64,000 bases of DNA. It comes from a virus. The DNA is taken from the IMG/VR virus record IMGVR_UViG_3300028844_006278. One strand, 5' to 3'. Shown piece by piece: positions 32,302-48,201 of the stretch (position 1 is the first letter of the stretch; each line of letters opens with the position of its first letter). The translations under genes were made by a program, and so were the position numbers. The notes beneath the pieces are model-generated. The model worked only from the letters and a program-made list of their open reading frames with translations. It searched no databases and was not told the origin of the DNA.

Positions 32302-33354
32302 TTATGTCTCCACGCGCTGTAGGGTTATGTCTGATTTCTCGAAATGCTCCCATCGTCCCTGCCAGGTGTCGCCGGCAGCGTCTTGTCGAGCTTTGAATGT
32401 GAGGTACTCCTTCCAACAGGCCGCAGTATGTCCTGTTACCCAGAGTTCTATTCCAGTCTCCTTCTGCACGGGAAACCACCATTGCTCTAGAAGTCCTGAG
32501 TTCTGTATGGTCCCGTCTGGGCGAAGTATAACGTCGGATGTGGTATTGCCTTTATGTTCGAGGTCTCGAAAATACGTATACTCTCCGGATAGCCGGTCGA
32601 ATTCCTCCTCCGCTATTACTTCGTAAGAGTTATTGACCGATCCTCGTATGTAGGATTCGAAGTTGTCCGATATATCCTTAGAGAAGTCCTTCTGTAAGCT
32701 CTTCACGGTAGTCTTCATATCCCGGCCGATCTTATGCGCACCTATTACCGGCATGCCTTTATCCATCCAGTCTCCTGCAGACTGTACCCAGTTGTATCGT
32801 CTATCCAGGTAGCGGATAGGTAGACGCATCATCTGGGCAGCCATGTTTAAGGAGGTCTGGTCTTTGAACTGTACCCAGAACCTAGCTTTAGGGTGCCTGA
32901 GCTTGACTGTCTTAGGGTTCAACTTTGCAATGATCCTGTCGTAGCATCCCTTAGCTGTAGACAGCAGGTACGCACAGGGATCTCTATTCAGCACTAGGAA
33001 CCCTGAGTTAAAATAGCTGTCTAGCTCTAGCTCAAAGCCCTCTGCATCCATGGCGATGTGTCCGGATCGGTTGAGGTCCCTAACTGCTCCTAGGCCTCCC
33101 TGTGTGACGGCTGCCAGCTCTCTAGGATCCCATTCCCGCATCCACCACAGGTCTGAGTCAAAATAGAACACGCATTCTGAATCTACCATATCAAAGATAT
33201 GGTACTTCAAGTGGTGTGGGAACGGCAGGTTGTATTTAGCGAGATGCTCGTCTCCTAATACTACGCACGGGAGGCCGGTAGTTCGTCGGAAACTGTCTGC
33301 AGCTTTATCTGCTAGCTTCCTGAAGCTTCCTGTTCCTATGGTTACGCCTGTCAT
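32302..33354 (-). CDS. GT8-like glycosyltransferase
   Basis: VFYFDSD, YFNSGFLVLN, DQTSLN, LDRRYN. Confidence 0.8.
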   Translation of the reverse strand: MTGVTIGTGSFRKLADKAADSFRRTTGLPCVVLGDEHLAKYNLPFPHHLKYHIFDMVDSECVFYFDSDLWWMREWDPRELAAVTQGGLGAVRDLNRSGHIAMDAEGFELELDSYFNSGFLVLNRDPCAYLLSTAKGCYDRIIAKLNPKTVKLRHPKARFWVQFKDQTSLNMAAQMMRLPIRYLDRRYNWVQSAGDWMDKGMPVIGAHKIGRDMKTTVKSLQKDFSKDISDNFESYIRGSVNNSYEVIAEEEFDRLSGEYTYFRDLEHKGNTTSDVILRPDGTIQNSGLLEQWWFPVQKETGIELWVTGHTAACWKEYLTFKARQDAAGDTWQGRWEHFEKSDITLQRVET

Positions 33355-33363
33355 AGTGTCTCT

Positions 33364-33696
33364 CTATTTTTGGATCTTCATGTATTCGAACCTGTGGTTC
33401 CCGTTAAATCCATCTGGATCGCAGATGCTCCACCCACTCTCATCGACCCATCCGGGATATACACCGCTAGTAGAGCCATAGTCCAACTGGCCGTCGTCCC
33501 ATATAGCTATATGTAGCTGGTCTGGAAAATCTATAGGACGCATAAGTATGGCATCGGATGTTGGGGTGTCTATGGATACCGGAGACCATGTGGTCGTCAG
33601 CAACTCCTCTGCCTTAAGTATGTCGCATCGGTGTATGCTAAATCTAGCGTCGCTCCATGTGTACCCGCAGTCCGGGCACGTGCTGTAGATGCTCAA
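33364..33696 (-). CDS. Hypothetical protein
   Basis: 110 aa, CPDC at N-terminus. Confidence 0.5.
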   Translation of the reverse strand: MSIYSTCPDCGYTWSDARFSIHRCDILKAEELLTTTWSPVSIDTPTSDAILMRPIDFPDQLHIAIWDDGQLDYGSTSGVYPGWVDESGWSICDPDGFNGNHRFEYMKIQK

Positions 33697-34244
33697 GGTT
33701 CTGTGCTCCGTAGCGCGTGCTGCAGCATCGCTGCTGTTCGGCTATTGATTGTTGCGACCGCGAATCCCTTATGAGGAAAGATCACATGCTCAAACTTCCC
33801 GAGAGCTTCGTGGTATCGTGACCGTTGCGCGTCGTGCACGCATAGAACGACCTCGTCATTATGTGTAGAGGCGTACTTGTATACATTCTCTATACACTCT
33901 GCCCGTCGTCGGGAGTCTACGAAGAACAGATCGAATAGGCCGGACTCGAACATGCCTGGATAGCCTGAGGCGTAGTACTCCGACGCCACCTTCATGTGCA
34001 GGACTGTCTGTCTCTGGAATTGTACGTCGGGAATCCACCGTTTCTCCTGCTCTACGGACACCACGTTCGCGACTCCTTGTCTAAGTGCCATGTCTGTGTT
34101 CTTGCCCGGGCCCCATTCATACACACCTATAGGCTGCATAGCATCCAGCACCTCCTGATAGTATGGGACATAGCTCTGCACGCCCTGGGAGCAGGGGCAG
34201 TTGTGCCTGTGTCCGCAGTAGGGAAACTTTGTAATGTCTGCCAT
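33693..34244 (-). CDS. Class I SAM-dependent methyltransferase
   Basis: VYEWGPG, VVSVEQ, FDLFFVD, VHDAQR. Confidence 0.7.
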   Translation of the reverse strand: MADITKFPYCGHRHNCPCSQGVQSYVPYYQEVLDAMQPIGVYEWGPGKNTDMALRQGVANVVSVEQEKRWIPDVQFQRQTVLHMKVASEYYASGYPGMFESGLFDLFFVDSRRRAECIENVYKYASTHNDEVVLCVHDAQRSRYHEALGKFEHVIFPHKGFAVATINSRTAAMLQHALRSTEP

Positions 34245-34245
34245 G

Positions 34246-35124
34246 CTATTCGGTCTCCGGTAGCTCGAAAGGTTTGTACGGTTGTTTCTTCCATCCCTGC
34301 AGGTAGCAGTGCATCTCTCTGCCGAATCTGCCGTCAGTCCAGTATTGCCCTGAGGATGTTCCTGCTGATACTCCTCCCACGTGCTGGATAAGTCCGATAG
34401 GTGTGGCGTATCTGGTCCACTCCTTATCGCTCCACGCTCCGTATAGTAAATCGGCCGGGTCGTCTGTCTCGTGCTTCTTCAGATAGGACAAGAGGCTGGA
34501 GAGGCACTCTCTGTCGTAGTAGATTCCGCATAGGCCTGCGAAGGGTCCTCCGCCGGAGCAGTAGTACTGTCCGCGGTAGAACGGGTTCTTACCTATATAG
34601 TTTCCTGTGCTGTAGAAGGTAAGCGTATTGCCGTCCTGCCGTAGCTGGTGCGATCGCATCTCGTTTATGGCATCCATGGCGTATCCCCAGAATCCGTCCG
34701 CAAAGACTACGTCGTCCTCGCATATAAGGAATCCTTTCTCCTGTGTGGATAGGGCGAACTCCAGTGCCCGGATGTAGTTGCGGGTGAGCCTCCTGTGCGG
34801 AGTGCTTGCTCCTTTATTCAGGTCTCTTGGAGGAGGGTGTATCTTCACTCGGTCCGTATGCTTATAGAACCAGTCCAGGTAGTTGGTAGGTCCGTCCCCT
34901 ACCAGAAGGTCGACTCCGGCTACCGAGTGGCTGAGGGGGTCGCACATCCACAGACTAGATAAAGTCTGGTAGATGTAGTGCTCTCCTTTCTCTGTCTTTC
35001 TTCCGCCCTGGACTCCAGAGCGCTCCCTGCGGTTGCATGTAAAGAATAGTACCCGGATATCGGAAACACTCAGCATCCGGGAAGAGGCGTCTGGCCTCAG
35101 TTTCTCTTTCAGAGGGTAGGTCAT
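34246..35124 (-). CDS. GT-A fold glycosyltransferase
   Basis: FLICEDDVVF, DPADL, LIQHVGGVS. Confidence 0.7.
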   Translation of the reverse strand: MTYPLKEKLRPDASSRMLSVSDIRVLFFTCNRRERSGVQGGRKTEKGEHYIYQTLSSLWMCDPLSHSVAGVDLLVGDGPTNYLDWFYKHTDRVKIHPPPRDLNKGASTPHRRLTRNYIRALEFALSTQEKGFLICEDDVVFADGFWGYAMDAINEMRSHQLRQDGNTLTFYSTGNYIGKNPFYRGQYYCSGGGPFAGLCGIYYDRECLSSLLSYLKKHETDDPADLLYGAWSDKEWTRYATPIGLIQHVGGVSAGTSSGQYWTDGRFGREMHCYLQGWKKQPYKPFELPETE

Positions 35125-35160: not shown

Positions 35161-36492
35161 CTACACGTTAGTGTAGTCCTCTAGTCGACGCAAGCGGCCT
35201 TGCTCGATATAATCCGCCACGAGCCGCTTCTCTGCTTCGAAGGGATGTCCACCCCAGCCGCCGTGCGTAAAGCCAACCAGATAGATCTCGTGATCCTCCC
35301 ATCCCGGTTGATTGAGTGCCATGTATATGGACACCATGCCTGTACTAGGTGTATCGAATTTGCGTTGGTATGTTCTGAGCTCCTTATCCAGCTCAGCCCA
35401 TAACTCCTTCGAGGGGTACTGTATCTGCACCTCCTCTCGAAACCTCTGTGCTTTTACGATGTGACCGGACCGGTCCTTACCTGCGTAGTTAGACCATAGG
35501 TGAGGTCTAGAGAACCACGCCCGTTCTATCTCGTCTCCTACCCGACCTCCGGGGATCAAGTACTTCTTCGGACTGCAGAACTTGGGCGCTGCGCCCTCTC
35601 CCGCATTGATGCAGGCCCATACTGTGGTCTTCTGTCCCATGCGCCTCTGCTCGTCTCCGTACCCTATGCAGAGGTTCATGCGGATGACCTCGTCCATGCT
35701 ATTGATGACGCGGCAGTAGTTATCCAACTTGTTGTGGTTGTTAGCGACTATTACTACCTTCTTCTTATCGGATGGTGGGTCTATCCATTTGCGAGCCTTC
35801 TTCAGCATATTGCCGTTTCCTCCGCCTGCCCACATATGGTAGGCGAAGGGCACTCTATGTGCGCCGCCGAACTTATCCTCGATGCGCGCCTTATCCCAGC
35901 CCTCATCTACCAGGTCTCGGAAGAAGTCCAGGCCGCCTCGGTGCGATCCCAGGGACCATATGTAGAAATCCCGCTTAGTTGCCACGGTTGTGATCTCCTT
36001 GTGATGCCGGGCCATCTTCGTCATCAGGCGTGGGCCAAACATCGTGCGGTCCACTTTACCACTAGCGGCCACCTCGAGGTACTTGTCTATATGCACCCAT
36101 GCCGGGGAGAACTTGGATATACCTATTATGCCGTTAGCGATGACCTTGTTCTTGTCCCACCGCCGGTCGTCGGTCTGCCGGGTCAGGAAGAAGTCCGCCT
36201 CTATCTCATATTTGTCGAAGATGTCGGACATCGGACGTAGAGGGACAAAGTCGCAGTCAAAGTACCACCCTCCGTATCGCTTTAGAGCCGATAGTCTGAG
36301 GATGTCTGACTTGGAGCAGAACTGAGGAGCTATGTCGTAATATTTTTTATACTCCGGTAAGAGAACTTCCTCTCCGTGCATGGTGATCTCGTAGTCCGGG
36401 TTAAGGTCTCGGAACCATTGGATGCACTGCTGCCCGAAATCTGGGAGAGGCTTATCGCCTACCCATATGAAATGTAGCTTCTTAGGGATCAT
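35161..36492 (-). CDS. GT32 (DxD) glycosyltransferase fused to a GT29/sialyltransferase-like domain
   Basis: MIPKKLHFIWVG, SDILRL..L..YGGWYFDCD; then VVIVAN..DEVIRMN..GQKTT, PSTGMVSI, IYLVGF, H.FEAE. Confidence 0.8.
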   Translation of the reverse strand: MIPKKLHFIWVGDKPLPDFGQQCIQWFRDLNPDYEITMHGEEVLLPEYKKYYDIAPQFCSKSDILRLSALKRYGGWYFDCDFVPLRPMSDIFDKYEIEADFFLTRQTDDRRWDKNKVIANGIIGISKFSPAWVHIDKYLEVAASGKVDRTMFGPRLMTKMARHHKEITTVATKRDFYIWSLGSHRGGLDFFRDLVDEGWDKARIEDKFGGAHRVPFAYHMWAGGGNGNMLKKARKWIDPPSDKKKVVIVANNHNKLDNYCRVINSMDEVIRMNLCIGYGDEQRRMGQKTTVWACINAGEGAAPKFCSPKKYLIPGGRVGDEIERAWFSRPHLWSNYAGKDRSGHIVKAQRFREEVQIQYPSKELWAELDKELRTYQRKFDTPSTGMVSIYMALNQPGWEDHEIYLVGFTHGGWGGHPFEAEKRLVADYIEQGRLRRLEDYTNV

Positions 36493-37094
36493 GCGCTGTC
36501 CTCGAGTGCTCTGAATAGGAGGCCGAACAATCTCACGTTCTTGCCGGGCGCGTGACTCTTGTAGTGCTGGTATACCTTAGACGACGCCGCGTAGAGATAG
36601 TATCCGTGGCTGCGCATGATCGCCACATAGTCGTTGAGGTCCCTGTTGAAGACAGGAGGATTGCCGCGGCGCCTCCATTCCCTGCCTAGTATCTCGGCTA
36701 CACATATGTATGGGTGATCTGCCTTCCGTATGTTGCCAATGACTCCGTCCAGTGTCTGGTCATCCATGTGTAGGAAAACTGTGTATGCCAAGGTAGCGTC
36801 TGCTTCGGGGTACTCGCTATCTACGGATACCTCGTTGAACGTGTATCCTGGATTAGCCTTCTTCGCGGCGGCTATAGATCCAGGACTAAGGTCAGACCCT
36901 ACATATTCCTCTGGGGAGCGTACTGAGCATAGTCGACCTCTCCCGCAGCCTAGGTCGTGCACTGTCTGTATGTCTGGGGCTAGGGCTAGTAGTTCCCGAA
37001 GGAACTGCACTACGTCGAACCCCTCCGGACTGCTCGTAGCGCCCGCTGTTATGTTCTCACCGCTATCTGCGGTCCAGTATTCCTTAAAGTCCAT
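36489..37094 (-). CDS. Class I SAM-dependent methyltransferase
   Basis: VHDLGCGRG, YVGSDLS, YTVFLHM. Confidence 0.85.
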   Translation of the reverse strand: MDFKEYWTADSGENITAGATSSPEGFDVVQFLRELLALAPDIQTVHDLGCGRGRLCSVRSPEEYVGSDLSPGSIAAAKKANPGYTFNEVSVDSEYPEADATLAYTVFLHMDDQTLDGVIGNIRKADHPYICVAEILGREWRRRGNPPVFNRDLNDYVAIMRSHGYYLYAASSKVYQHYKSHAPGKNVRLFGLLFRALEDSA

Positions 37095-37102
37095 GCTGCT
37101 AC

Positions 37103-38287
37103 CTAATCTACGTATATGTGGGCCATGTCGCGGGTGCCGCAGGCAAGGCGTATCCCCTCATCACTTATACATGTTATAACATGTATAGTGCCTTTAGGTA
37201 GGAAGACTATGCTTCCTTCCTGGGCTAGTATTGTCTCGTCGGGATCTTTGCTTAGTTTTCCTGAGTCTGGGTAGTACCAGAGGTCGTATCTGAAGCACCC
37301 TTCGACAATGAACCAGAACTCAGACTTAGAGGAGTGGAAGTGCCTCCTACATCCCTCACCCTTATGTTGGTAGATAAGTCCTACTTGGTCCTTATCAGAT
37401 AGTACTACAGGAACGGTCCCTGGACGGCCCGCTAACGCTTCCTTAGCCTCTGCTAGTGTCGTCATCCTCTTGTTGCTCTCCGACTTCGTAAGCGGAGATC
37501 CGTCTCGAGCTATCAACGTACATAGGTCCGATTCTATACCTGATACGACGTCGGGGTTGAACTTAAATTTCCCGGTATCCTTAGCTGAGTGCTTGTGAGC
37601 CAGACACGCTTCGATTATGCGTAAGTCTTGCGGGCTATCTAGCTCTAGTGCCTCCATCTTAGGGATGGGTGTGTAGTTCACTCTTCCGTTAAACGTCGGG
37701 CCTGTTGCGTATGATTCCATAAACTCTTTCCGCTTCCATGCGCAGATAGCCCACGATATGCTTCTTATGGGAGTCAGCTCTTGAGTAGGCTGCTTCCTGA
37801 GAGGGGTAAAGTTTATGGGGACGTCTCCTAGAAAGCTCTCGATATGATTTTCTACTACGGCGAATTGGCTGTCTGCGCCGGATTCTCTGAACCTGCTAAC
37901 AAACAATTCAATATACTCCGGCGAGATCAACGGAGAGGTTGTATGGATCATGACTACGTTGGTCGCTTCTTCCGAGAACTCCATAAAGGACTGTATGAAA
38001 TGGTCGGCTACCTGGCACCGGCCCCCTTGGCAGCTGGCGGAAGAATTAAACATCCTGCACGCCGTTCCGCCCCTCTCTGGATCTCTCTCCCTAAAGGAGG
38101 CCCCTAGCCCCTCTATCAGGTCCCTAAGGCACACTAGGTCGCTGTCTACGTATATCTTATCGAATACCCCGCTGTCTACCGCAGCTTTCACGACGTAATA
38201 GATAGCTGGGTATCCGTCTATAAGTATGAGGTTTTTATCCTGTACTCTAGTAGAGCCGGACAGTGCGGGTATTAGAGCTACGGTCAT
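37103..38287 (-). CDS. NeuA/KdsB-like cytidylyltransferase fused to cupin
   Basis: ALIPALSGSTRVQDKNL, FDKIYVDSD, HTTSPL, LELDSPQD; cupin RHFHSSKSEFW...PKGTIH. Confidence 0.85.
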   Translation of the reverse strand: MTVALIPALSGSTRVQDKNLILIDGYPAIYYVVKAAVDSGVFDKIYVDSDLVCLRDLIEGLGASFRERDPERGGTACRMFNSSASCQGGRCQVADHFIQSFMEFSEEATNVVMIHTTSPLISPEYIELFVSRFRESGADSQFAVVENHIESFLGDVPINFTPLRKQPTQELTPIRSISWAICAWKRKEFMESYATGPTFNGRVNYTPIPKMEALELDSPQDLRIIEACLAHKHSAKDTGKFKFNPDVVSGIESDLCTLIARDGSPLTKSESNKRMTTLAEAKEALAGRPGTVPVVLSDKDQVGLIYQHKGEGCRRHFHSSKSEFWFIVEGCFRYDLWYYPDSGKLSKDPDETILAQEGSIVFLPKGTIHVITCISDEGIRLACGTRDMAHIYVD

Positions 38288-38293
38288 GGTCCT

Positions 38294-38851
38294 CTAGACT
38301 CCGGCCCGCTTACGTTCCTTCTCTTCTGATATTAACGGACATCTGTTTCCCGTGGCTACTACTAGCTCATAGAACAAAATAAGCGTCAGTATCTCTGTTA
38401 CGTGGAAATAGTCAGTACGCAGCGCCACGTTGTTCACTCCGTCTATTTTAGACTCATGGCCACTAATGAGGTGGCAGGAGATGTTTTTGTGCCTGCTGTA
38501 GTACTCCAAGGCTTTGACCACGTTGGCTGACGTGCCAGAGCAGGATAGTCCGATTATAACGATGTCGTCTTTAGAGCCTATGTCCTCCAGCTCCAACCAT
38601 CTTTGGAATATCTTGTCGAACCCGTAGTCGTTTGCTATCGATGTCATCAGACATTGGGAGTCCAGAGACGTGAATACTTTACTAGTTAGCCGGGTTACAT
38701 CGTCAGATCCGTGTGACGCCACTGCCCAGAGTCCTCCGTTTCCAAACGCATATACCTTCTTAGTTCCCGCTACAGCCTTAACGAGGTTGTCCCACTCCTC
38801 CGTCTGTATGATTTCAATGTGCTTCTTTTCGATGTCGTCAAGATCTAACAT
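38294..38851 (-). CDS. SIS-domain sugar-phosphate isomerase (GmhA-like)
   Basis: FGNGG..ASH, TSIANDYGFDKIF, GLSCSGTSANVVKA. Confidence 0.85.
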   Translation of the reverse strand: MLDLDDIEKKHIEIIQTEEWDNLVKAVAGTKKVYAFGNGGLWAVASHGSDDVTRLTSKVFTSLDSQCLMTSIANDYGFDKIFQRWLELEDIGSKDDIVIIGLSCSGTSANVVKALEYYSRHKNISCHLISGHESKIDGVNNVALRTDYFHVTEILTLILFYELVVATGNRCPLISEEKERKRAGV

Positions 38852-38873
38852 CCGTATTTCCTCCCTAGTTAGG

Positions 38874-39587
38874 TTACTTTACTTTGGAATCTATGCGTTG
38901 CTTCATCAGGAAATCGTCCAAGACTACCCTACTATCGTCCTCTATTAGAGATAGTATGTATCTTAGCTGGTTTTCTCCGGAAGCATGGCTTGATTTATTA
39001 ATGTGTCTCTTGGCCCTTTGTGCATTCTCCAGGCCTCTTCTGTACTTAGGAATATACCCTGTCCTATAGAATGAGATACCTGTGATGTACAAAGATTTTA
39101 TGTCGTACCTCAGTAGGTCGCATATGGCGTTAGTTCCGGTGTTTGGTTTACCCTTACATCCCCAGTATGTCGAAACCCACTGCTCTCTGTCCATGACGGC
39201 TACGGGGAACTTACCTCCCACAACCTTTAGAAAATTCTTAATGAGACGAAATCTATACATATCCTCCCCGGACTGGCGGAGCATGGATTTTCCCATCACC
39301 CCCCAGACTACAAATTTGTAGTCCTGCGCTTGGATAAACTTTTTATCTGATAACCGGACCCCTCCTGCCGTCTGGGTGGGGACCAGGCAGCTATACAGGA
39401 CATCTGTCCTGGTGCCTATATCTTCGTGCCAGCACTCCCAGGCCCAGAATTGCTTGTTCAGCCGGATAACGACATCGTGCTCGTCTATGTACTTCCCTTT
39501 TCCAGTCCCTAGCGCTGTGGCAGCGGGTCCGACCAGAGCTACTCTCTTACCTCTAAGGTACTCTGCGTACTGCTCATTAGCTGTCAT
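38874..39587 (-). CDS. GT29/sialyltransferase-like protein
   Basis: KRVALVGPA..G..IDEHDVVIRLN..IGTRTD (sialylmotif-L-like), PNTGTNAI (motif-S-like), LYITGISFY. Start MTAN at 39587 by ATGA overlap. Confidence 0.8.
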   Translation of the reverse strand: MTANEQYAEYLRGKRVALVGPAATALGTGKGKYIDEHDVVIRLNKQFWAWECWHEDIGTRTDVLYSCLVPTQTAGGVRLSDKKFIQAQDYKFVVWGVMGKSMLRQSGEDMYRFRLIKNFLKVVGGKFPVAVMDREQWVSTYWGCKGKPNTGTNAICDLLRYDIKSLYITGISFYRTGYIPKYRRGLENAQRAKRHINKSSHASGENQLRYILSLIEDDSRVVLDDFLMKQRIDSKVK

Positions 39588-40654
39588 AGCGTCTCCCATA
39601 TGGTTTGAGCAGCGGCATTCACCTCTCTACTCGTTACGTCCTGATATACCGATATCCGGCCATGTCCCTCGTAGAGCACCATTGCCAGATCCTTCCCTGT
39701 TCTCTTCTTATCCCAATACATGTAGCGAGCTACTTCTTCTATGTCTATAGCTCGTACTTTGGTGGCGTCTGGAACGAACGCCGTGCTGCACGCTCGATTA
39801 TACTCCTGAACCTCTGCCGATATCAGCCCCCGATTGAAGGAGATTTCATCTGCTACCAGTATGCCTACTAAGACCGCTTGGCCGTGAGGTATCGTAAACC
39901 CCGAGGCGGACTCCAAAGCATGTCCGAAACAATGTCCGTAGTTACAGAGATTTCTTCGTCCCTTGTCGAACTCGTCGTCCTCAAAGTAACTCCTCTTTAT
40001 TGACAGGCAGTTACGAATTATACGCTCCATCTCTTTACTAGGGACGTTCTTGTCCTGTAGTGTGGTGCTTATGGCCCTAGTGTCTTCGTAAGTTTGGGAG
40101 CACATAAGGTTAAACTTTATGATCTCTCCAACGCCGCTTTTGAATTCGCAAGGAGGTAGAGATCCTAGGAGACCGGGGTCTACGTATATCTGGTGAGGCG
40201 GGTAGAATAGACCCAGCGTATTCTTCCTATCTCCTAGATTGATCGATACTTTGGACCCTATGCAGCTGTCCGCCTGGGAGAGGAGAGTAGTCGGAACGTA
40301 GATCCACCTCACTCCTCTGTATATCGTAGCCGCTATGAATCCGGATAGGTCCTGCAGGACTCCTCCGCCGATTGTTATTATAGTATGGTCTCTTCTGAAG
40401 CCCTTTTTTATTAAGGACTCGATCCATCCTGAGACGGCCGAGTACTCCTTCTCCTTCTCGCTCGAGTCTACCTCTATCACAGGGGCCGGCAGATCGGCTG
40501 CGCTCACGCGGTCCTCGTATAGGTCGTACACGTTCTTATCCACTAGTACAGCGCAGGGAGATTCGCGCGATATTCTTCGGACTTCTTCGAACGCATCTGA
40601 GACAAAGCTAAGGTGGTAGTCGTGCGAGGCGCTGGATATTTTTGTATTATACAA
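39584..40654 (-). CDS. AroB/dehydroquinate-synthase-family sugar-phosphate cyclase
   Basis: IGGGVLQD, YRGV..VPTTLLSQADSCIGSK, KNTLG.FYPP, GEIIK, NYGHCFGHALE, HGQAV. Confidence 0.9.
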   Translation of the reverse strand: MYNTKISSASHDYHLSFVSDAFEEVRRISRESPCAVLVDKNVYDLYEDRVSAADLPAPVIEVDSSEKEKEYSAVSGWIESLIKKGFRRDHTIITIGGGVLQDLSGFIAATIYRGVRWIYVPTTLLSQADSCIGSKVSINLGDRKNTLGLFYPPHQIYVDPGLLGSLPPCEFKSGVGEIIKFNLMCSQTYEDTRAISTTLQDKNVPSKEMERIIRNCLSIKRSYFEDDEFDKGRRNLCNYGHCFGHALESASGFTIPHGQAVLVGILVADEISFNRGLISAEVQEYNRACSTAFVPDATKVRAIDIEEVARYMYWDKKRTGKDLAMVLYEGHGRISVYQDVTSREVNAAAQTIWETL

Positions 40655-41363
40655 GGCTCTCTCCCCCGTCTACAGTTAAGTCTTGCCCTGTTATGTACGA
40701 GTTCTTATCCGAACATAGGAACTCTATAACTCCTGCTATGTCGGATGGTGCAGCCAAACGGCCTTTCGGAATACCCTGCTCTCTACGAGAACGCTCCTCT
40801 ATGGTTAGGTTCCTACTTACCATTGGAGTGTCCGTCAGTCCCGGCGACACTGTGTTGACCAAGATATTATGCGGAGCCATGTCCAGCGCGATCGCTCGTA
40901 CCAATCCCTGTGCTCCTCCTTTAGAAGTTCCATACGTCAGGCATCCTGCACGTGGTCTGTGCGCGGCTATGGATGCAACCTGTACTATCCTGCCCTGTGT
41001 TCCCCGAGATACCATTAGTCTGGCGACCTCCTGCATTATCTGTGCCGGTGCCTTGAGGTTCACGGATAGCATCTCCTCCCACCCGTCGTCGGAAAATCCG
41101 TGTGTCCATGATGGGTTGAAGATGCCTGCGCAAATAACCAAGGCATCTATGTCTCGGCCGCCTATATACCTGCGTGCTGCTTCCACGCTGCTGAGGCAAT
41201 CAAGATCTAACTGTATCCGATCATGCAGTGAGGAGTTCGATTTGTCCGACCTGTGCGAGCCTATCACTGTGTCCCCGTATGAGATAAAAGTCTCAACCAC
41301 TGCTTCTCCTATCCCAGACGTTGCTCCTATCACTAGTACTGTTCGATCGCCTCTTCGTTTCAT
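40647..41363 (-). CDS. SDR family oxidoreductase
   Basis: GATSGIG, YGTSK, VNTVSPG, ITGQDLTVDGG. Confidence 0.92.
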   Translation of the reverse strand: MKRRGDRTVLVIGATSGIGEAVVETFISYGDTVIGSHRSDKSNSSLHDRIQLDLDCLSSVEAARRYIGGRDIDALVICAGIFNPSWTHGFSDDGWEEMLSVNLKAPAQIMQEVARLMVSRGTQGRIVQVASIAAHRPRAGCLTYGTSKGGAQGLVRAIALDMAPHNILVNTVSPGLTDTPMVSRNLTIEERSRREQGIPKGRLAAPSDIAGVIEFLCSDKNSYITGQDLTVDGGESLV

Positions 41364-42082
41364 CAGGTGATAACAAAGCCTCCGTCTACAATTAAGTCCT
41401 GTCCTACGATGTGGGACGCTGCTGGGGACACCAAGAATCCTACTACTTCCGCGATCTCCTCAGGACATGCCATACGACCTAGCGGGATCTTGCTGCATAG
41501 GTCGTCTCTCTCTGACTGGCTGAGCATACGTCTAGTCAGTTCTGTATCCGTGAAGCCCGGGCAGATGTTATTTACTAGTATGCCCTGTCCCGCCAGCTCG
41601 ATGGCGGCCTCTTTTGTGAATGCTGATAGCCCTGCTTTAGATGCAGAGTAGGCTGCCCGCATATCCCTGGACAGTGTCCCGAAGATAGAGCCTATGTTTA
41701 TTATCCGGCCCGATCCTCTACGTACCATGCTATGTACGACTGCTCGTACTATTCTCATAGGCCCGGATAGATTCACCTCCAGGATATTAGATAATGTTTG
41801 GGGACACAGGTCGAGTATACTTTGTATCTCGTTGACACCTGCGTTGTTCACCACTACGCTCCAGTCTATCTCATGTATGAAGTCTGGTAGCGCCTTCTCC
41901 TTCCCTATATCTAGCTGCTCGTATCTAGCTCCGGTAATCGGATCCTCCGGGGACACCGCTCGTCCGGTATATATGGCGGAGTACCCGCAGCCTACTAGGT
42001 GCTTCGTTATCGCTCTGCCTATTCCCCGAGTGCCTCCCGTAATCAGCGCGAAGCCTTTATGACCGTTATGTGGATTTAGCAT
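41363..42082 (-). CDS. SDR family oxidoreductase
   Basis: TGGTRGIG, NNAG, YSASK, CPGFTDT, VDGG. Confidence 0.92.
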   Translation of the reverse strand: MLNPHNGHKGFALITGGTRGIGRAITKHLVGCGYSAIYTGRAVSPEDPITGARYEQLDIGKEKALPDFIHEIDWSVVVNNAGVNEIQSILDLCPQTLSNILEVNLSGPMRIVRAVVHSMVRRGSGRIINIGSIFGTLSRDMRAAYSASKAGLSAFTKEAAIELAGQGILVNNICPGFTDTELTRRMLSQSERDDLCSKIPLGRMACPEEIAEVVGFLVSPAASHIVGQDLIVDGGFVIT

Positions 42083-42993
42083 ACGTCTTCTAAATCTTCC
42101 TTGCAGTATGCGTAAAGCTCCTCGGCAAGCTCGTCGAACGTCGGGACCTCAGGATACCCTGCCATCTCCCATAGGAGCTTGTGCTCGTCCGGCGCGTCTG
42201 TACCTACCAATACCGTGCTCTGCGTACTCTCTGAGTGCTGCGGGTCGGATATGGATAGCCGCTCTTGCCGGAAGTGCGCAATGATAGACACAGCCTGTTC
42301 GAACTCGCTTATCGCTCCGTCGGACATGATGTGGTGGAGGTTGCCTATGCGCTCCCGCTTTACCTCGTCTCGGATAAGTCCTCTGACTATCCTTGCAAAG
42401 GCTAGTGTAGTTATAGGTTGGGAGTAAATATCCTTCGATACCTCTAATACGGAGTCAGTCTCAAATATAGTGCTGAATAGGCCTTCGGTAATGCGCGGGC
42501 CTATTACGTCTGCCCGCAGGTGGTAGACTCCTTTAGTACTGACTTCCCCTATAGCGGTCGACCTGCCGAAGACGGTCACCGCATCTGTTGCGGAGCTCTC
42601 TGTCTGCAGGGTTCCGCTAGGCTGAAAGACCGCGTACGAGGATGGCTGGATCGTGATCGCTCCTACTCTGTTTGCCTCTGACGCTACTATGTGCGGCAAG
42701 AGTGAGTTAAGCGTCAATGCCTTCTCTACGTCCGTCGAGGACTCCGCCGGGGTCGCGTATAGGCAGTTAACTATCGCATTGGGCTGGGAGGTCTCTAACA
42801 GCGTCTGGAGGACGTCTGTGCAGTCCTGTCGGCTTGCTGCTGGTTTGAATAGGAGGCTGCGGCATCTCTCGGGAGCCTTTATATCCTGCCGACTGTATGT
42901 TACCCATACCTGGGTATCTTCGGAAGATGCGAGGGTCTTGGATACCTCTCGGCCTATGCCGGACTCTCCGCCTAATACTAGAACACTGATCAT
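42076..42993 (-). CDS. RmlD-like NDP-sugar reductase (divergent)
   Basis: VLVLGGESGIG, PNAIVNC, NSLLPH; catalytic YGxSK appears as FGRST. Confidence 0.65.
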   Translation of the reverse strand: MISVLVLGGESGIGREVSKTLASSEDTQVWVTYSRQDIKAPERCRSLLFKPAASRQDCTDVLQTLLETSQPNAIVNCLYATPAESSTDVEKALTLNSLLPHIVASEANRVGAITIQPSSYAVFQPSGTLQTESSATDAVTVFGRSTAIGEVSTKGVYHLRADVIGPRITEGLFSTIFETDSVLEVSKDIYSQPITTLAFARIVRGLIRDEVKRERIGNLHHIMSDGAISEFEQAVSIIAHFRQERLSISDPQHSESTQSTVLVGTDAPDEHKLLWEMAGYPEVPTFDELAEELYAYCKEDLEDVC

Positions 42994-44256: not shown

Positions 44257-44445
44257 TTAATTATCATCGTCAGCATTATTCTCCGCCCCTCTCCGGTGGG
44301 ACACGTTCTGCATCCTGCCGCACCCTGCGCACCGGAACCCGATCATAAGGGTTCCATCACTATCATACCAAGTCTCTACTTTACCTCCGTTCAGACCTAG
44401 TATGTGTGCCAGCCTGTGCAGGAGTCTGTGGATAGCCCTCCTCAC
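44257..44445 (-). CDS. Small Zn-ribbon-like protein
   Basis: GTGA overlap with upstream gene; FRCAGCG. Confidence 0.5.
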   Translation of the reverse strand: MRRAIHRLLHRLAHILGLNGGKVETWYDSDGTLMIGFRCAGCGRMQNVSHRRGAENNADDDN

Positions 44446-46202
44446 GTCTCTTCTCCCTGGTCCTCGGTAGGTGTATCCTCTGCAGCCTTGTCGGCCTTAC
44501 GCGCTGCTGCAGCAGCATCGTGTGTTGCCTGCATCTTACGTCGGACCTCGTCCGCTTCCTTCTTCCGCGCCTCGGCTGCCTCTTTCTCTAGCTGCTCTCT
44601 GTTATCGATAGCGTGCTGGATCTTCTTCTGGACGCATTCCGGCTTCTCGTAGGTCTTAACTGTCCACTTTTCTGCGTCTTCTGAAGAGAAGTCGTATGCG
44701 TCCTGGTACATCCGGACCTTGTCCACTACGCTGTCTACTGTGATCATGTCCATGCACTTAGGGATTACCTGCCCTGAATTGGAGACGACCGGCATGTGGC
44801 ACAGCTTGGTGTCTTCCTTTGTATCGTAGTCCTTCTCGTCTCCGTCCAACATAGGCTCTACTCGAGACTTCCAGCACCCTCCGTGCGAATTACATGGGAG
44901 CGCCCCGCATGTGTGGAGGTATTGGTGGTGAGAGTATGCTTCCCACATGGTAGGCTCTCTGCCTCCTGCGATGACCACACAGGGACGAGTGGCCCTCTTG
45001 TATCGAGGATGCATCTCTACAGCTGCTGCGAGGTGCATAGGGTAGGATATAGGCGTAACTACTCCTGCCGCGTGGTACATGAGGCGGATGAACTGACGGT
45101 GAGAGGTCTTGCCTCTTAGGTCTATGACATTGTCCCCTGTCAGATCCGGGTGATAGTGCTGCGGATTGTCTGCCCCTACCTGTACCCATGTGATGTCCGG
45201 CGTCCGATCGATCAGTTCCTGGAATCTCGCGACCTCCCATAGCTTAGCTGTGTAGTCGTGCTTACGGCCAGCGTCGATTATCCAGAACGGAATGTCCCGC
45301 CCGACTATCTCATGTACCTGAGAGTACCAAGACTTCTCCTGCTCTGACAGGTACACAGCACCGTGGGCTGCCGTCTGGTCGATGGGCAGTCCTAGCTTTG
45401 CCTCCAAGTCCTTGCGAAAGCCGTGGCAGAAGTGATGGGCGCCCCGATTGCTGGTGTTTACAAGATTGTACTCCATTCGTACCCACATAGCATCTGGATC
45501 GGAGTCCTCTATGTGCGTATGGTTGGGGTTGTTCTCCCATATCTCGTGAGCCGGTGTCCGCATGCATGTGATGAACATGCCCGGGTAGGACCTATGTAGA
45601 TCGTCTACCGCCCTGGAGAGCATAATAAGATCTCCGGGACTCTGGTGCTGCGAGATGAAGAGCTTAACCGGCGCCGTACATTCCTCTAGGATGCTGGGGG
45701 CACCTGCCGGCCGAGGAGCCAGTACTTCCTTATTCAGACTGGCTGCCGCTTCTGTGAATGCGGACCTAGTGGTCTTAGCGGGCAGGCCGTCTGATGTAGT
45801 GGCGGACTCTACGGATATCGGCAGATTCTTTGTGCTCTTAGGCAGACGTGCTGTTTTTGCCACCAGTACGTCTCGGCGGCAAATGTCGGCGTACCGCTGC
45901 TCGATCTGCTCCCGGGGAGTTTTAGTAGGTACGCGCATGGGCTGGGTAGCTCCTTGCGCGCCCTTGCGGACGAACTCTACCTTACCGGCCTTCAGCTTGG
46001 ATACGAAGTCGGGAGACACTTGGATCTTCTTAGACTTCAGAGAGTCTATTGGGATTCCCAGCTTATCTGACATTAGAGCAAGAGCGTCCTCATCCAGCAC
46101 AGCCGTAGGAGCCTCTGTATCTGAGCCTTCAGGAACGTCCGGAACCTTAGGCTCTGTAGGTACCAGCTTAAGCTCGGTAGGGTTTACGAGTACGTCCGAC
46201 AT
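44442..46202 (-). CDS. GT9-like (heptosyltransferase-type, GT-B) glycosyltransferase with N-terminal extension
   Basis: SPGDLIML, IWENNP, KLW, WVQVG, DLRGKT, MHLAAAV, CVVIAGGREP. Confidence 0.8.
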   Translation of the reverse strand: MSDVLVNPTELKLVPTEPKVPDVPEGSDTEAPTAVLDEDALALMSDKLGIPIDSLKSKKIQVSPDFVSKLKAGKVEFVRKGAQGATQPMRVPTKTPREQIEQRYADICRRDVLVAKTARLPKSTKNLPISVESATTSDGLPAKTTRSAFTEAAASLNKEVLAPRPAGAPSILEECTAPVKLFISQHQSPGDLIMLSRAVDDLHRSYPGMFITCMRTPAHEIWENNPNHTHIEDSDPDAMWVRMEYNLVNTSNRGAHHFCHGFRKDLEAKLGLPIDQTAAHGAVYLSEQEKSWYSQVHEIVGRDIPFWIIDAGRKHDYTAKLWEVARFQELIDRTPDITWVQVGADNPQHYHPDLTGDNVIDLRGKTSHRQFIRLMYHAAGVVTPISYPMHLAAAVEMHPRYKRATRPCVVIAGGREPTMWEAYSHHQYLHTCGALPCNSHGGCWKSRVEPMLDGDEKDYDTKEDTKLCHMPVVSNSGQVIPKCMDMITVDSVVDKVRMYQDAYDFSSEDAEKWTVKTYEKPECVQKKIQHAIDNREQLEKEAAEARKKEADEVRRKMQATHDAAAAARKADKAAEDTPTEDQGEET

Positions 46203-46907
46203 CTATTTCTGCTCCTCCTCTGCGAGCTGCTTGCGAAGCTCTTGTCCTTCCTTGATGACCTCGATGTAGTCGTCGAGTCGGCGGAGCAACGGCCCTGAGT
46301 TAACTGTAGAGGGCCACAGGCCTTCCTCCATCCACTCTGCGATGACCGCCTTGCGTAGCTCCGGAGAGAGCCCTGCAAGGACGGACAGCATGCCTTGGAA
46401 CTCGCTGTCTCCGTCTTGTAGCGGACGGATGCCGATAGCCATACGAGGAACTGTGAACAGGTAGCAAAAGTAGGACTGCACAAAGAACGTGCAGAATGCT
46501 CCGTATACCTCTTCCCCTCTGTCCTGGGAGCGGACCTCTTCGTATAGCTGGCTGAACAGCGGCACTCCCTGCAGATTGTCGGACACAGACTCGTTCCATA
46601 CCTTGGCGATTAGCTGCCCGATGCAGTCTAAGAGCTCGATGGCCTTCTCGTCGTCCTTATACAGAAGCTGCGTGGCGGCCTGCAGGCTCTCCTTCATAAG
46701 GAACGGCATGCAGTGTCCGATGTCTCGGTGAATAGGGTCGCACACTACTCCGGTAACCGCCGACCGTACGCCGCCGAATGAGGTAGCGTACTTGCCCTTG
46801 TGATCTAGCATCTGAGTGCCGCGGAGGTGCTGGGCTCCCTTCCAATCTCCTTCAGGCGGGGGAGTTGGCGGAGGAGTCTGGGGTGTGTCGGTAGATGTAT
46901 TTGCCAT
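46203..46907 (-). CDS. Hypothetical protein
   Basis: 234 aa, AGGAG SD upstream. Confidence 0.6.
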   Translation of the reverse strand: MANTSTDTPQTPPPTPPPEGDWKGAQHLRGTQMLDHKGKYATSFGGVRSAVTGVVCDPIHRDIGHCMPFLMKESLQAATQLLYKDDEKAIELLDCIGQLIAKVWNESVSDNLQGVPLFSQLYEEVRSQDRGEEVYGAFCTFFVQSYFCYLFTVPRMAIGIRPLQDGDSEFQGMLSVLAGLSPELRKAVIAEWMEEGLWPSTVNSGPLLRRLDDYIEVIKEGQELRKQLAEEEQK

Positions 46908-48201
46908 GATGGTCTCCTTTGATGGTGCGTAGCTGTACTACGTTCTTGTGTGGAAGGTATTTGCTCCATACAGGAGCGAGCTGTTGTGGTGACTCTAGGG
47001 CCGCCTTCTCGAATAGAGCGTATAGAGGCTGTACGATAGCACTCTTCTTGCAGCTAGAGCATCCGGATGTCTTGGCAGCGTTCGCAAGATCGTCGGCGAT
47101 CTTCTGCAGGACGTCCGCTGGGAATAGCGCAGGAGCCTCTTCTCGGAACTTAGGGACTAGTGCTACAAGATCCTTGGGGCGAACGACTGCGTTCTTTGTA
47201 TTCTCCTGTAGGGAGTGCTCCCGGCGCACGTCCGCGGCAGATGTCTTAAGGATGTCGGACAAGGATAGGTCCTTAGCGAAAGATATCTGGTGCCGGCAGT
47301 GCTCCATAAGATAGTTCGAAGGATATACCGGTATCTCGAACGGAGATCTATCTATAGCTGATATGCGGATCCCTATCTCTGAGAACTTCTTAAAGATATT
47401 CGGGAACACCTGGTGCAGGCTGGCATAGGTCTTACGCTTCCTGTCCGCTTCCTCCTTCTTAGGGATATCTCCCGAGAAGTAGAAGTCCGATAGCTCTGTG
47501 GAAAGATCTACTCCCGACATCACTATATTGTTGAAGCCCAGTACGGCGGCCAGAGATAGCCCCAGGGTAGTAGAGGTCCGTACTCGCATAAAGGACAGCT
47601 CCCGAGGATCCGATACAAATGTATCCACAGTACCGGAGAACGCTTTAGTAGATAGGTTAGCTGGTAGATCCTTAGCTGACTTGATCAGCTGCTTGTTCCT
47701 CCGGAAGTCGTACAGAGGCTTGTCGTAGAACTGCTCTAGTACGAAGGATACCGTATGCTGGCTAGTGAATGCTGCTGGGTGGTAGGAGAGCACGTCTCGG
47801 GCTCCTATCCAGTAGTCCGCATACGGCACGGCAGCTATTGCATTGCCTATGGCGATGATGGGGATCCCTAGCTTATGCACCTCCTCTAAGCGGGCCGGGC
47901 TGAGGCTGGGCCCGGCTCCCGCTAGTACACACATGCCCTCTGAGTATATAGGTGGAATGCCTATAGGGGCGAGCGCCTCCACGCGCTTCCTAAAGAGACT
48001 CCCTTGCTCTACTGCCTCATCGTTGTAGCGCAGCGTGTCTCTCTGTGTTCCTGTCTCCTGCAGGATAAGGTCGTCAAATTTCCTGGTCTCCTCGAATAGC
48101 GCACGCTTGCTCGTGCCTTCTAGCGCAGACGCTAGGATTAGACGCATATCGCCGCTACGGACGAAGCTGGGCCGTAGGCCGTATCTGGTCGCCTTACTCA
48201 T
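46852..48201 (-). CDS. Maf/DUF115-like protein (possible nonulosonate transferase)
   Basis: CVLAGAGPSL, IIAIGN, LSLAAVLGFNNIVMSGVDL; C-terminal CSSC. Confidence 0.65.
   Translation of the reverse strand: MSKATRYGLRPSFVRSGDMRLILASALEGTSKRALFEETRKFDDLILQETGTQRDTLRYNDEAVEQGSLFRKRVEALAPIGIPPIYSEGMCVLAGAGPSLSPARLEEVHKLGIPIIAIGNAIAAVPYADYWIGARDVLSYHPAAFTSQHTVSFVLEQFYDKPLYDFRRNKQLIKSAKDLPANLSTKAFSGTVDTFVSDPRELSFMRVRTSTTLGLSLAAVLGFNNIVMSGVDLSTELSDFYFSGDIPKKEEADRKRKTYASLHQVFPNIFKKFSEIGIRISAIDRSPFEIPVYPSNYLMEHCRHQISFAKDLSLSDILKTSAADVRREHSLQENTKNAVVRPKDLVALVPKFREEAPALFPADVLQKIADDLANAAKTSGCSSCKKSAIVQPLYALFEKAALESPQQLAPVWSKYLPHKNVVQLRTIKGDHHGKYIYRHTPDSSANSPA

Follow-up and report, generated by a model that had tools for sequence, protein, structure and literature searches.

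A phage gene cassette in which a TIGR04425-clade relative of AroB is joined by a CMP-transferase and sialyltransferase-like enzymes: a possible route to a new CMP-activated ulosonic-acid-type sugar

The CMP-activated keto-acid sugars, i.e. sialic, legionaminic and pseudaminic acids as well as 3-deoxy-D-manno-octulosonate (Kdo), are surface determinants for immunity, phage adsorption and motility. To our knowledge all described routes to these sugars depend on a synthase, NeuB or KdsA, after which a phosphatase or hydrolase acts. The viral record IMGVR_UViG_3300028844_006278 displays a cassette of nine genes that contains a CMP-transferase and sialyltransferase-like enzymes together with a homologue of 3-dehydroquinate synthase (DHQS, AroB). 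The stretch of DNA analyzed, termed the window, is 64,000 nt in length and represents bases 91638–155637 of the 164,893-bp record; positions below are those of the window. The record has direct terminal repeats and is judged complete. Genes for a multisubunit RNA polymerase and for virion proteins are present in it, and it is therefore the genome of a large tailed phage. From sequence comparison we propose, at an even balance of belief, that a host sugar phosphate is turned by the cassette into a new CMP-activated sugar of the ulosonic-acid type, for use by the sialyltransferase-like enzymes.

DHQS (EC 4.2.3.4, TIGR01357; PDB 3CLH, 3OKF, 5EKS, 1DQS) shares the PF01761 and PF24621 fold with the phage AroB homologue, with 30%–35% amino acid (aa) identity, and the metal, NAD-side and substrate ligands are kept. 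An NAD+-dependent oxidation and a β-elimination of phosphate are probably common to both. Unlike DHQS, members of the phage family are nearly always paired with a short-chain dehydrogenase/reductase (SDR) and are found in glycan clusters, not in shikimate operons. In addition the phage family displays the motif QADSCIGSK where DHQS has VDSSVGGK. TIGR04425 is an NCBIfam clade, [quoted passage not shown], which is a hypothetical equivalog and is uncharacterized. The phage protein falls in this clade and has the same SDR partner, however the phage clade scores under the cut-off of the model.

Nine open reading frames fill positions 35161–42993, all on the minus strand, and neighbors overlap by 1–16 nt or are 6–22 nt apart. 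Families were assigned by comparing Pfam and NCBIfam profile scores with the curated cut-offs. In the direction of reading these are:

42076..42993, minus strand: RmlD-like extended SDR, 305 aa (Pfam RmlD_sub_bind 70 bits; 7-nt overlap with the next gene)
41363..42082, minus strand: classical SDR 1, 239 aa (adh_short_C2 145 bits, YxxxK motif)
40647..41363, minus strand: classical SDR 2, 238 aa (adh_short_C2 151 bits)
39584..40654, minus strand: AroB-related enzyme, clade TIGR04425, 356 aa, TTG start (DHQ_synthase and DHQS_C; TIGR04425 375.9 bits)
38874..39599, minus strand: sialyltransferase-fold glycosyltransferase, GT29/GT42-like, 241 aa (Glyco_transf_29 29.3 bits)
38294..38851, minus strand: predicted SIS-domain sugar-phosphate isomerase, 185 aa (SIS_2 24.9 bits; distantly GmhA-like)
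37103..38287, minus strand: fusion of CMP-transferase and C-terminal metal cupin, 394 aa (CTP_transf_3 59 bits, Cupin_2 21 bits)
36489..37094, minus strand: S-adenosylmethionine-dependent methyltransferase, 201 aa (Methyltransf_11 21.5 bits; 4-nt overlap with the next gene)
35161..36492, minus strand: two-domain glycosyltransferase, GT32-type DXD and GT29-like C-terminus, 443 aa (Gly_transf_sug 41 bits)

The coupled nine-gene run described in the earlier note is thus found in full. A 4.2-kb metagenome fragment (L138) carries SDR, AroB-like, GT29-like, SIS, CMP-transferase/cupin and methyltransferase genes in the same order as the phage cassette. The encoded proteins are 63%–84% identical to those of the phage, with nonsynonymous divergence (dN) of 0.11–0.32 and synonymous divergence (dS) that is saturated. 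The identical order, together with low dN and saturated dS, shows that the run is more than chance; the cassette consists of working genes held together under purifying selection. The core also recurs in bacteria, archaea and other phages, as shown below, and the view of one conserved cassette is upheld. No DNA-level match to the cassette was found by megablast among cultured phages. A tblastn search of the same phages gave DHQS genes only, with 35% identity or less and mostly in bacterial DNA filed as phage. A plasmid search gave ordinary aroB genes only. A scan for promoters and terminators showed fewer promoter-like sites than in shuffled sequences; the phage encodes its own RNA polymerase. 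Positions 38001–40000, which fall on the AroB-like, GT29-like and SIS genes, display the G+C minimum of the window (0.49 as against 0.50–0.59 elsewhere) and its strongest negative GC skew. These two features are compatible with a foreign origin.

The best model for the AroB-like protein is TIGR04425 (375.9 bits, cut-off 400), as compared with 262 bits for the aroB model TIGR01357 (cut-off 305). The protein and its three closest relatives score 360–376 with TIGR04425 (e.g. P0002, 370 and P0003, 361), which is under 400. Eight cellular homologues score 400–440 (399.8 in one of the eight), and their scores with the aroB model are 257–302, all under 305. A maximum-likelihood tree was made of 117 sequences, i.e. 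113 family members and four DHQS (E. coli, Listeria, Leptospira and Streptomyces). A branch with SH-aLRT support of 100 parts all 113 family members from the four DHQS. The phage protein, that of L138 and three metagenome proteins form one clade (SH-aLRT 100). Bacterial and archaeal genes from cassettes with a CMP-transferase (CMP type, see below) make up its sister clade (98), and the phage clade is not nested among other viral genes. The gene was therefore acquired by this phage lineage independently of the larger viral group.

By these scores and this topology the AroB homologue is not a housekeeping DHQS but a member of the defined clade TIGR04425. The earlier note had set the cyclase apart from housekeeping DHQS, and this is borne out by the aroB score under cut-off, the better match to TIGR04425 and the separate clade; its membership in a defined NCBIfam clade, however, means that it is not an orphan oddity. 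The assignment in Pfam and many database names, i.e. 3-dehydroquinate synthase, would suggest that the phage carries an auxiliary DHQS that boosts host shikimate flux, with coincidental neighbors. This is barely credible in view of the scores and the fully supported split from the four DHQS. In addition no DAHP-synthase gene is found genome-wide (this search did not cover other shikimate genes) and the context of glycan genes is conserved.

Residues R113, D129, K135, N145, E177, K180, K220, R234, N238, H241, H245, H257 and K316/K317 are invariant in the family and align with DHQS residues, which we take to be R130, D146, K152, N162, E194, K197, K250, R264, N268, H271, H275, H287 and K356 of the A. 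nidulans enzyme. The ligand residues of DHQS for metal, phosphate and ring are all kept across the family, and QADSCIGSK is among the family's own invariant motifs. This conserved active site argues for an NAD+-dependent oxidation beside the phosphate-bearing carbon, followed by β-elimination. [quoted passage not shown]

When compared with PDB sequences the family profile scores 164–230 bits with DHQS, 180 with DOIS, 147 with EEVS and 128 with DDGS. Sedoheptulose cyclases of the EEVS/DDGS type, which score below DHQS, are rejected on this ranking. A cyclase phylogeny against all four of these enzymes had been proposed; the family is parted from DHQS in the tree, and DOIS, EEVS and DDGS were compared by the profile scores given here. 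Sedoheptulose 7-phosphate, one of the substrates proposed at the outset, is not favored because all DHQS ligand residues are kept and a sister cassette has a DAHP-synthase-like gene (see below). In a literature search no paper was found that names TIGR04425, that links DHQS-like enzymes to nonulosonic-acid clusters, or that brings together DHQS, a cytidylyltransferase and an isomerase. The SugarBase preprint on new CMP-sugars makes no mention of such enzymes.

The 241-aa protein has a Pfam GT29 score of 29.3 bits (cut-off 23) at residues 18–68, where sialyl motif L aligns with ST6Gal1. An AlphaFold model made from 12 homologues (pLDDT 76, pTM 0.82) was compared with the PDB by Foldseek. The 31 best-ranked chains are all sialyltransferases (ST3Gal-I, ST8SiaIII, ST6Gal1 and CstII/CstI), and of 36 chains with E-value ≤ 0.001 nearly all are GT29/GT42 sialyltransferases (best E-value = 4.9e-6, probability 1.0, TM about 0.5). 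As judged from the model, the protein has the sialyltransferase (GT-A variant 2) fold, and use of a CMP-ulosonate donor is predicted. Homologues are found in 19–21 related viral cassettes.

The 443-aa protein displays a Gly_transf_sug (GT32) domain at residues 24–95 (41 bits). Its C-terminal 209 aa align with the profile of the phage GT29-like family by hhalign (probability 80%, E-value = 1.4e-5) over 136 columns that cover motif L and the (P)xTG motif; the Pfam GT29 score of this region is 16.8 bits, under the cut-off of 23. The protein is thus likely a GT32-GT29 fusion, with moderate support for its C-terminus. Two sialyltransferase-like genes had been reported, and of these the 241-aa protein stands by Pfam score and fold, and the C-terminal part of the 443-aa protein more moderately by its profile alignment. 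Two other proteins, P0130 and P0131, have a GT32 N-terminal domain of the 443-aa type fused to PF05159 domains (KpsC/KpsS-type β-Kdo transferase). The GT32 module seems to be repeatedly paired with transferases of keto-acid sugars.

A tenth open reading frame lies apart from the nine-gene run:

46852..48201, minus strand: candidate third CMP-sugar transferase, MptE/Maf/WaaZ-like, 449 aa (MptE-like 19.5 bits, under cut-off)

Its nearest Atlas clusters are MptE-like and WaaZ_KDO_III (feature score 0.88, TM 0.4–0.5). As a lead only, this protein may add another CMP-keto-acid transferase to the island.

The CMP-transferase has a CTP_transf_3 score of 59.4 bits (cut-off 22.6) and its best PDB matches are CMP-Neu5Ac synthetases. 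Neither equivalog cut-off is reached, i.e. PseF gives 55.9 bits (cut-off 205.7) and the KdsB models 33 bits or less (cut-offs 155–281). The CTP_transf_3 domain is the only sugar nucleotidyltransferase in the complete phage genome. The fused cupin has an HxH...E...H metal motif that is invariant in 14 homologues; comparison of the cupin with PDB sequences gave no informative match. The CMP-transferase/cupin fusion is also found in bacteria (L003, L005 and L023) and in 54 viral loci. P0092 (509 aa) is a TIGR04425-type AroB homologue fused to a cupin/phosphomannose isomerase (PMI)-like domain. By its domain composition this fusion ties the cupin to the AroB-like step, and not only to the CMP-transferase. 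Family scores, fold and gene order agree that the CMP-transferase is coupled to a cyclase homologue and to at least one true sialyltransferase-fold enzyme, as had been claimed.

In the complete phage genome no DAHP_synth_1 family gene (KdsA or DAHP synthase), NeuB or class-III aminotransferase was found. It follows that the carbon skeleton or its precursor has to be taken from a host metabolite; with neither NeuB nor KdsA encoded, a non-sialic CMP-activated unit is the natural reading of the product. On this point the earlier note is supported. It had also listed absent synthases and shikimate genes; NeuB and the KdsA/DAHP-synthase family are absent genome-wide, and the search did not include NeuC and other shikimate genes.

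The SIS protein scores 24.9 bits with SIS_2, just under the cut-off of 27, and 58 bits with the gmhA equivalog TIGR00441 (cut-off 209). It aligns with GmhA structures (E-value = 4e-11), and the phosphate-binding S-x-S-G-x-S and an H47/D51 pair are kept. We take Glu65 and His180 (E. coli numbering) to be the catalytic residues of GmhA, and their mapping is presumptive as well. On this mapping GmhA H61 is kept, E65 is replaced by Asp, and the phage-type proteins have no His at the position of His180; SIS proteins of the cellular cassettes retain His residues there. Together with the score, these changes reject a true GmhA. Of the CMP-type cassettes, all 25 viral ones and 8 of the 11 cellular ones have the SIS gene.

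SDR 1 and SDR 2 have 34% identity. Although SDR 2 adjoins the AroB-like gene, an SDR tree places SDR 1 inside the family of TIGR04425 partner SDRs and SDR 2 outside of it, so that SDR 2 is not borne out as the universal partner. SDR 2 is kept in L138 (64% identity over the part present). By its place in the tree SDR 2 is an extra, more divergent reductase; other phage cassettes have a class-III aminotransferase just after the AroB-like gene instead.

The RmlD-like protein scores 58 bits with TIGR01214 (rmlD), far under the cut-off of 224, and every one of its nearest Atlas clusters belongs to the RmlD family (feature score 0.98, TM 0.9). Neither an RmlA-type NTP_transferase nor RmlC was found in the whole phage genome, and thus a conventional pathway is lacking. 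The family scores make the protein a member of the RmlD superfamily only, probably a ketoreductase that acts on a nucleotide-linked sugar. The methyltransferase shows weak class-I matches (Methyltransf_11, 21.5 bits, cut-off 21.2), and its N-terminal 71 aa are 75% conserved in L138. It probably O-methylates the sugar.

AroB-like family members were found in 55 IMG/VR contigs. About half of these repeat an arrangement with a thiamine diphosphate (ThDP) enzyme that is described below. About 24 contigs carry the GT29-like, CMP-transferase/cupin, SDR, AroB-like, class-III (LAT-like) aminotransferase and SIS genes, often with added MptE/Maf-like transferases and extended SDRs. The present cassette would be an amine-free variant of this arrangement with RmlD-like, methyltransferase and GT32/GT29-like additions, and a methylated product is predicted. 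As the tree indicates, the AroB-type CMP cassette occurs in two independent phage lineages.

A search with the CMP-transferase/cupin gave 54 viral loci with the full-length fusion; 28 have both SDR and AroB-like genes and 26 have neither. In 11 of the latter 26 a small phosphatase of 126–144 aa of the haloacid dehalogenase (HAD) type is found exactly in the slot of the SDR and AroB-like genes, with the CMP-transferase gene on one side and the aminotransferase or SIS gene on the other. This mini HAD displays the motifs DFDGV, S/T-A-K, EKPRA and YIDDK and is not recognized by Pfam. The HAD-type cassettes keep homologous CMP-transferase, SIS, aminotransferase and GT29-like genes. Since the HAD phosphatase swaps with SDR and AroB-like genes in otherwise homologous cassettes, the AroB-like step looks like a removal of phosphate.

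Three of the viral loci (L159–L161) have an operon without an AroB-like gene, made up of a D-2-hydroxyacid dehydrogenase, a second small cytidylyltransferase, a DAHP-synthase-like enzyme, a LAT-like aminotransferase, CMP-transferase/cupin, SIS and the mini HAD (L160:3798–10112). With DAHP-synthase models the synthase gives 258 and 231 bits, as compared with 95 bits for a KdsA model. From its gene content the operon appears to form a complete pathway of its own to an amino-heptulosonic acid, and the DAHP-synthase-like gene agrees with a seven-carbon 3-deoxy-heptulosonate 7-phosphate as substrate.

The following pathway is proposed for the phage cassette. A 3-deoxy-hept-2-ulosonate 7-phosphate, either host DAHP or an isomer with a precursor formed by way of the SIS protein, would be bound as DAHP is by DHQS; the SIS protein might provide the host synthase with an isomeric tetrose phosphate or another sugar phosphate. 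The AroB-like enzyme would oxidize C5 with bound NAD+ and then eliminate the phosphate. The coupled SDR, nearly always present and often with an overlapping gene, would capture and reduce the reactive product, i.e. an enol-pyranose or keto-deoxy sugar, before cyclization, to give a dephosphorylated, probably 7-deoxy keto-acid sugar with the oxygen ring retained. SDR 2 would stand in for the aminotransferase of other phage cassettes and leave a hydroxyl where theirs has an amine. CMP would be added by the CTP_transf_3 domain, and the cupin, RmlD-like reductase and methyltransferase may tailor the sugar (epimerize, reduce and methylate). The 241-aa GT29-like protein and the GT32/GT29-like fusion would then transfer it to a glycan that the neighboring GT71-, GT9- and Maf-like enzymes help to build, with a virion protein or the host envelope as candidate acceptor. 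We infer the substrate, the order of the steps, the regiochemistry, and a deoxy rather than a carbocyclic product.

Several points weigh against this proposal. The complete DHQS active site, acting on DAHP, gives the dehydroquinate carbocycle by default, and no sequence sign of a blocked cyclization is seen. Binding of the DAHP carboxylate by two of the kept ligand residues is a presumption by analogy with DHQS. With direct use of host DAHP, the SIS isomerase would have no clear role. In the closest cellular cassettes GFO/IDH/MocA and D-2-hydroxyacid dehydrogenases, sometimes with an HpcH aldolase, take the place of a DAHP synthase; the keto acid there may therefore be made differently. In another phage lineage KdsD and KdsA are found beside the cassette and point to a substrate of eight carbons. 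Finally the HAD and DAHP-synthase evidence was obtained with phages of the aminotransferase type, and their clade is not the one closest to the phage AroB-like gene.

The first of these points leads to a carbocyclic product, as the earlier note had suggested. Here the AroB-like enzyme would take DAHP, or a compound close to it, through the complete DHQS reaction and the SDRs would reduce the ring ketone to a quinate-like acid. CMP would be placed on the tertiary hydroxyl beside the carboxylate, as a mimic of the anomeric center, to give a CMP-“carba-ulosonate” donor for the GT29-like enzymes. The DHQS catalytic and ligand residues are all invariant, the characterized members of the superfamily are all cyclases (including EboD, which acts on mannose 6-phosphate), and the enol-pyranose intermediate of DHQS cyclizes spontaneously. 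The order of AroB-like gene followed by SDR and, elsewhere, aminotransferase also parallels the cyclase-then-aminotransferase order of the aminocyclitols. We nevertheless regard this as unlikely. Transfer of the sialyltransferase type needs the ring oxygen for stabilization of the transition state, so that a saturated carbocycle would be a very poor donor, and yet from one to three sialyltransferase-type transferases are always coupled in the cassettes. The swap of HAD with SDR and AroB-like genes is more easily explained by two products alike in shape than by a sugar and a carbasugar; recognition by the downstream homologues would have to change, and exchange of a phosphatase for a cyclase is therefore hardly feasible. 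In addition the conversion of DAHP to dehydroquinate needs no SIS isomerase. Thus the carbocyclic unit of the earlier note becomes the less likely reading. The specific claim that the AroB-like enzyme cyclizes, and that the phage, other phages and the cellular carriers make a CMP-activated quinate-like “carba-sialic acid” for a surface or virion glycan, is put forward as unlikely. If true, a nucleotide-activated carbasugar acid would be found in a glycoconjugate for the first time, and a transfer chemistry new to sialyltransferase-fold enzymes would be needed.

The KdsA genes beside the cassette are found in three viral records of another lineage, two of which have an AroB-type cassette; KdsD-like and KdsA genes are on the other strand, about 4 kb away. 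An example is L235:426–2268 (record of L103/L164), with a KdsD-like arabinose-5-phosphate isomerase, a small adenylyl/cytidylyltransferase and KdsA (309 bits, cut-off 242). This arrangement would fit an eight-carbon route, in which Kdo 8-phosphate from host or phage KdsD/KdsA is the substrate, the AroB-like enzyme and SDR replace KdsC to give an 8-deoxy (7-keto, then reduced) Kdo analogue, and the KdsB-like domain activates it. The layout of SIS, phosphate removal and CMP-transferase mirrors KdsD, KdsC and KdsB; GT32-domain homologues are fused to KpsC/KpsS-type Kdo transferases, and the 449-aa neighbor is WaaZ/Maf-like with a GT9 heptosyltransferase-like gene nearby. By chemical reasoning, however, the phosphate of Kdo 8-phosphate pyranose is one carbon further out and DHQS-type geometry would expel the C7 hydroxyl, while phosphate- and ring-binding residues are all unchanged. 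In the sister lineage the synthase inside the cassette resembles DAHP synthase and not KdsA, and carriers of the cassette include Archaea and Gram-positive bacteria, which are generally without a Kdo pathway. The eight-carbon route is accordingly held to be decidedly improbable.

In cellular organisms 473 AroB-like relatives were found among about 185,000 species genomes (one genome per species), and the 80 best loci were analyzed. A classical SDR is directly upstream of the AroB-like gene in 75 of the 80, and 55 of 56 viral loci have an SDR homologue. Sulfurimonas sp. CS5, Sulfuriferula multivorans and Effusibacillus consociatus are among the carriers that have been cultured.

The CMP type (about 11 loci) is found in Omnitrophota, Margulisiibacteriota, Pseudomonadota, Campylobacterota, Methanoregula and Thermoplasmatales, and the phage AroB-like gene is sister to its main clade. 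The genes are a GFO/IDH/MocA oxidoreductase, methyltransferase, D-2-hydroxyacid dehydrogenase, SIS, SDR, AroB-like and CTP_transf_3 (often fused to the same cupin), sometimes with an added class-III aminotransferase or HpcH aldolase. The core of SIS, SDR, AroB-like and CMP-transferase(-cupin) is thus present in about 11 bacterial and archaeal loci, where the proposed search for bacterial synteny succeeded, and in about 28 viral contigs. No homologue of the HpcH aldolase, GFO or 2-hydroxyacid dehydrogenase of the cellular cassettes was found in the phage genome. As a speculation by analogy, with PdxB chemistry as precedent, the cellular cassettes may oxidize an aldose phosphate to a keto acid by means of isomerase, GFO dehydrogenase and 2-hydroxyacid dehydrogenase.

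The ThDP type (about 50 of the 80 loci) has glucose-1-phosphate cytidylyltransferase, CDP-glucose 4,6-dehydratase, RfbH, a YerE-like ThDP enzyme and an HpcH-type aldolase, and no CMP-transferase. This gene set is the one proposed for acyl-branched sugars such as caryophyllose (PMC9306805). In these loci the AroB-like/SDR pair may supply an aldehyde or keto-acid precursor of the side chain. The ThDP-type loci (L011, L012, L018, L021, L026, L032, L041, L065, L072 and about 40 more) also have a PgfS/ArnC-like GT2 and GtrA, and this version is found in many IMG/VR contigs (L084–L087, L092, L098 and others).

The frequency of AroB-like/SDR pairs with CDP-hexose, ThDP and HpcH genes and without a CMP-transferase could mean that the phage genes are a mosaic. 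The SIS protein would serve ADP-heptose for the GT9-like enzyme, the RmlD-like protein would act on host dTDP-sugars and the CMP-transferase on host Kdo or sialic acid, while the AroB-like/SDR pair would form a separate compound, e.g. a side-chain precursor like that of the ThDP-type loci. The RmlD-like, methyltransferase and GT32 fusion genes are also without homologues in other cassettes. We consider this very improbable: SIS, SDR, AroB-like and CMP-transferase/cupin genes are adjacent across bacteria, archaea and two independent phage lineages, genes overlap, and the AroB-cupin fusion P0092 exists. The SIS protein, far under the GmhA cut-off and without a His at the mapped His180, also argues against it.

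The cassette is part of a glycan island (about 30.1–48.2 kb) with at least six putative glycosyltransferases. A GT71-type mannosyltransferase-like protein of 500 aa (30799–32301, minus strand) and a 586-aa protein with a weak GT9 (heptosyltransferase) domain (44442–46202, minus strand) flank it. Directly downstream, at 32302–35124 (minus strand), are four coupled open reading frames of 350, 110, 183 and 292 aa that show no Pfam family at E-value ≤ 0.01; these may encode additional enzymes of the glycan pathway, or acceptors.

It thus appears that a relative of a central shikimate enzyme has been wired into a CMP-sugar route; hundreds of bacterial and archaeal species carry the family, as do two independent phage lineages. 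If the proposed pathway is true, there is a new class of seven-carbon CMP-sugars, deoxy or carbocyclic, and a new reaction type for the sugar-phosphate-cyclase superfamily. Large phages would remodel their own or a host glycan with a sugar that the host may not make.

Among known systems, the Kdo pathway (KdsD, KdsA, KdsC and KdsB) and its Kdo8N branch (KdnB/KdnA, Shewanella) resemble the cassette in the SIS isomerase, in removal of the terminal phosphate from a 3-deoxy-ulosonate phosphate and in the CTP_transf_3 enzyme, and the sister cassettes have a HAD phosphatase and an aminotransferase as well. Unlike the Kdo pathway, the phage has no KdsA, its SIS protein is GmhA-like and not KdsD-like, and the phosphatase appears to be replaced by the DHQS homologue and SDR; the DAHP-synthase-type synthase of the sister lineage points to C7 and not C8. 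The CMP-sialic, legionaminic and pseudaminic acid pathways share the NeuA/PseF-type CMP-transferase, a sialyltransferase-fold transferase and, in related cassettes, Maf/MptE-like proteins. However the phage cassette is without a NeuB-type synthase, the UDP/GDP-HexNAc 4,6-dehydratase route and N-acetyl chemistry, and its skeleton would come from a sugar phosphate handled by the AroB-like enzyme.

Similarity to the dTDP-L-rhamnose pathway (RmlA–D) is by analogy only, i.e. a nucleotidyltransferase, an enzyme of NAD+ oxidation and elimination, a cupin and an RmlD-family reductase. The leaving group in the phage would be phosphate and not water, the eliminating enzyme is of the DHQS family and not an extended SDR, the metal cupin is unlike RmlC, and the nucleotide is CMP. 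The CMP-transferase/cupin architecture is reminiscent of ManC/AlgA, where a nucleotidyltransferase is joined to a PMI cupin. DOIS, EEVS, EVS, DDGS and EboD are of the same superfamily as the AroB-like enzyme, and cyclase followed by reductase or aminotransferase is the classic aminocyclitol order. Unlike these enzymes, the phage family is nearer to DHQS by profile score, and it is coupled to a CMP-transferase and sialyltransferase-like enzymes where they are coupled to antibiotic or sunscreen genes.

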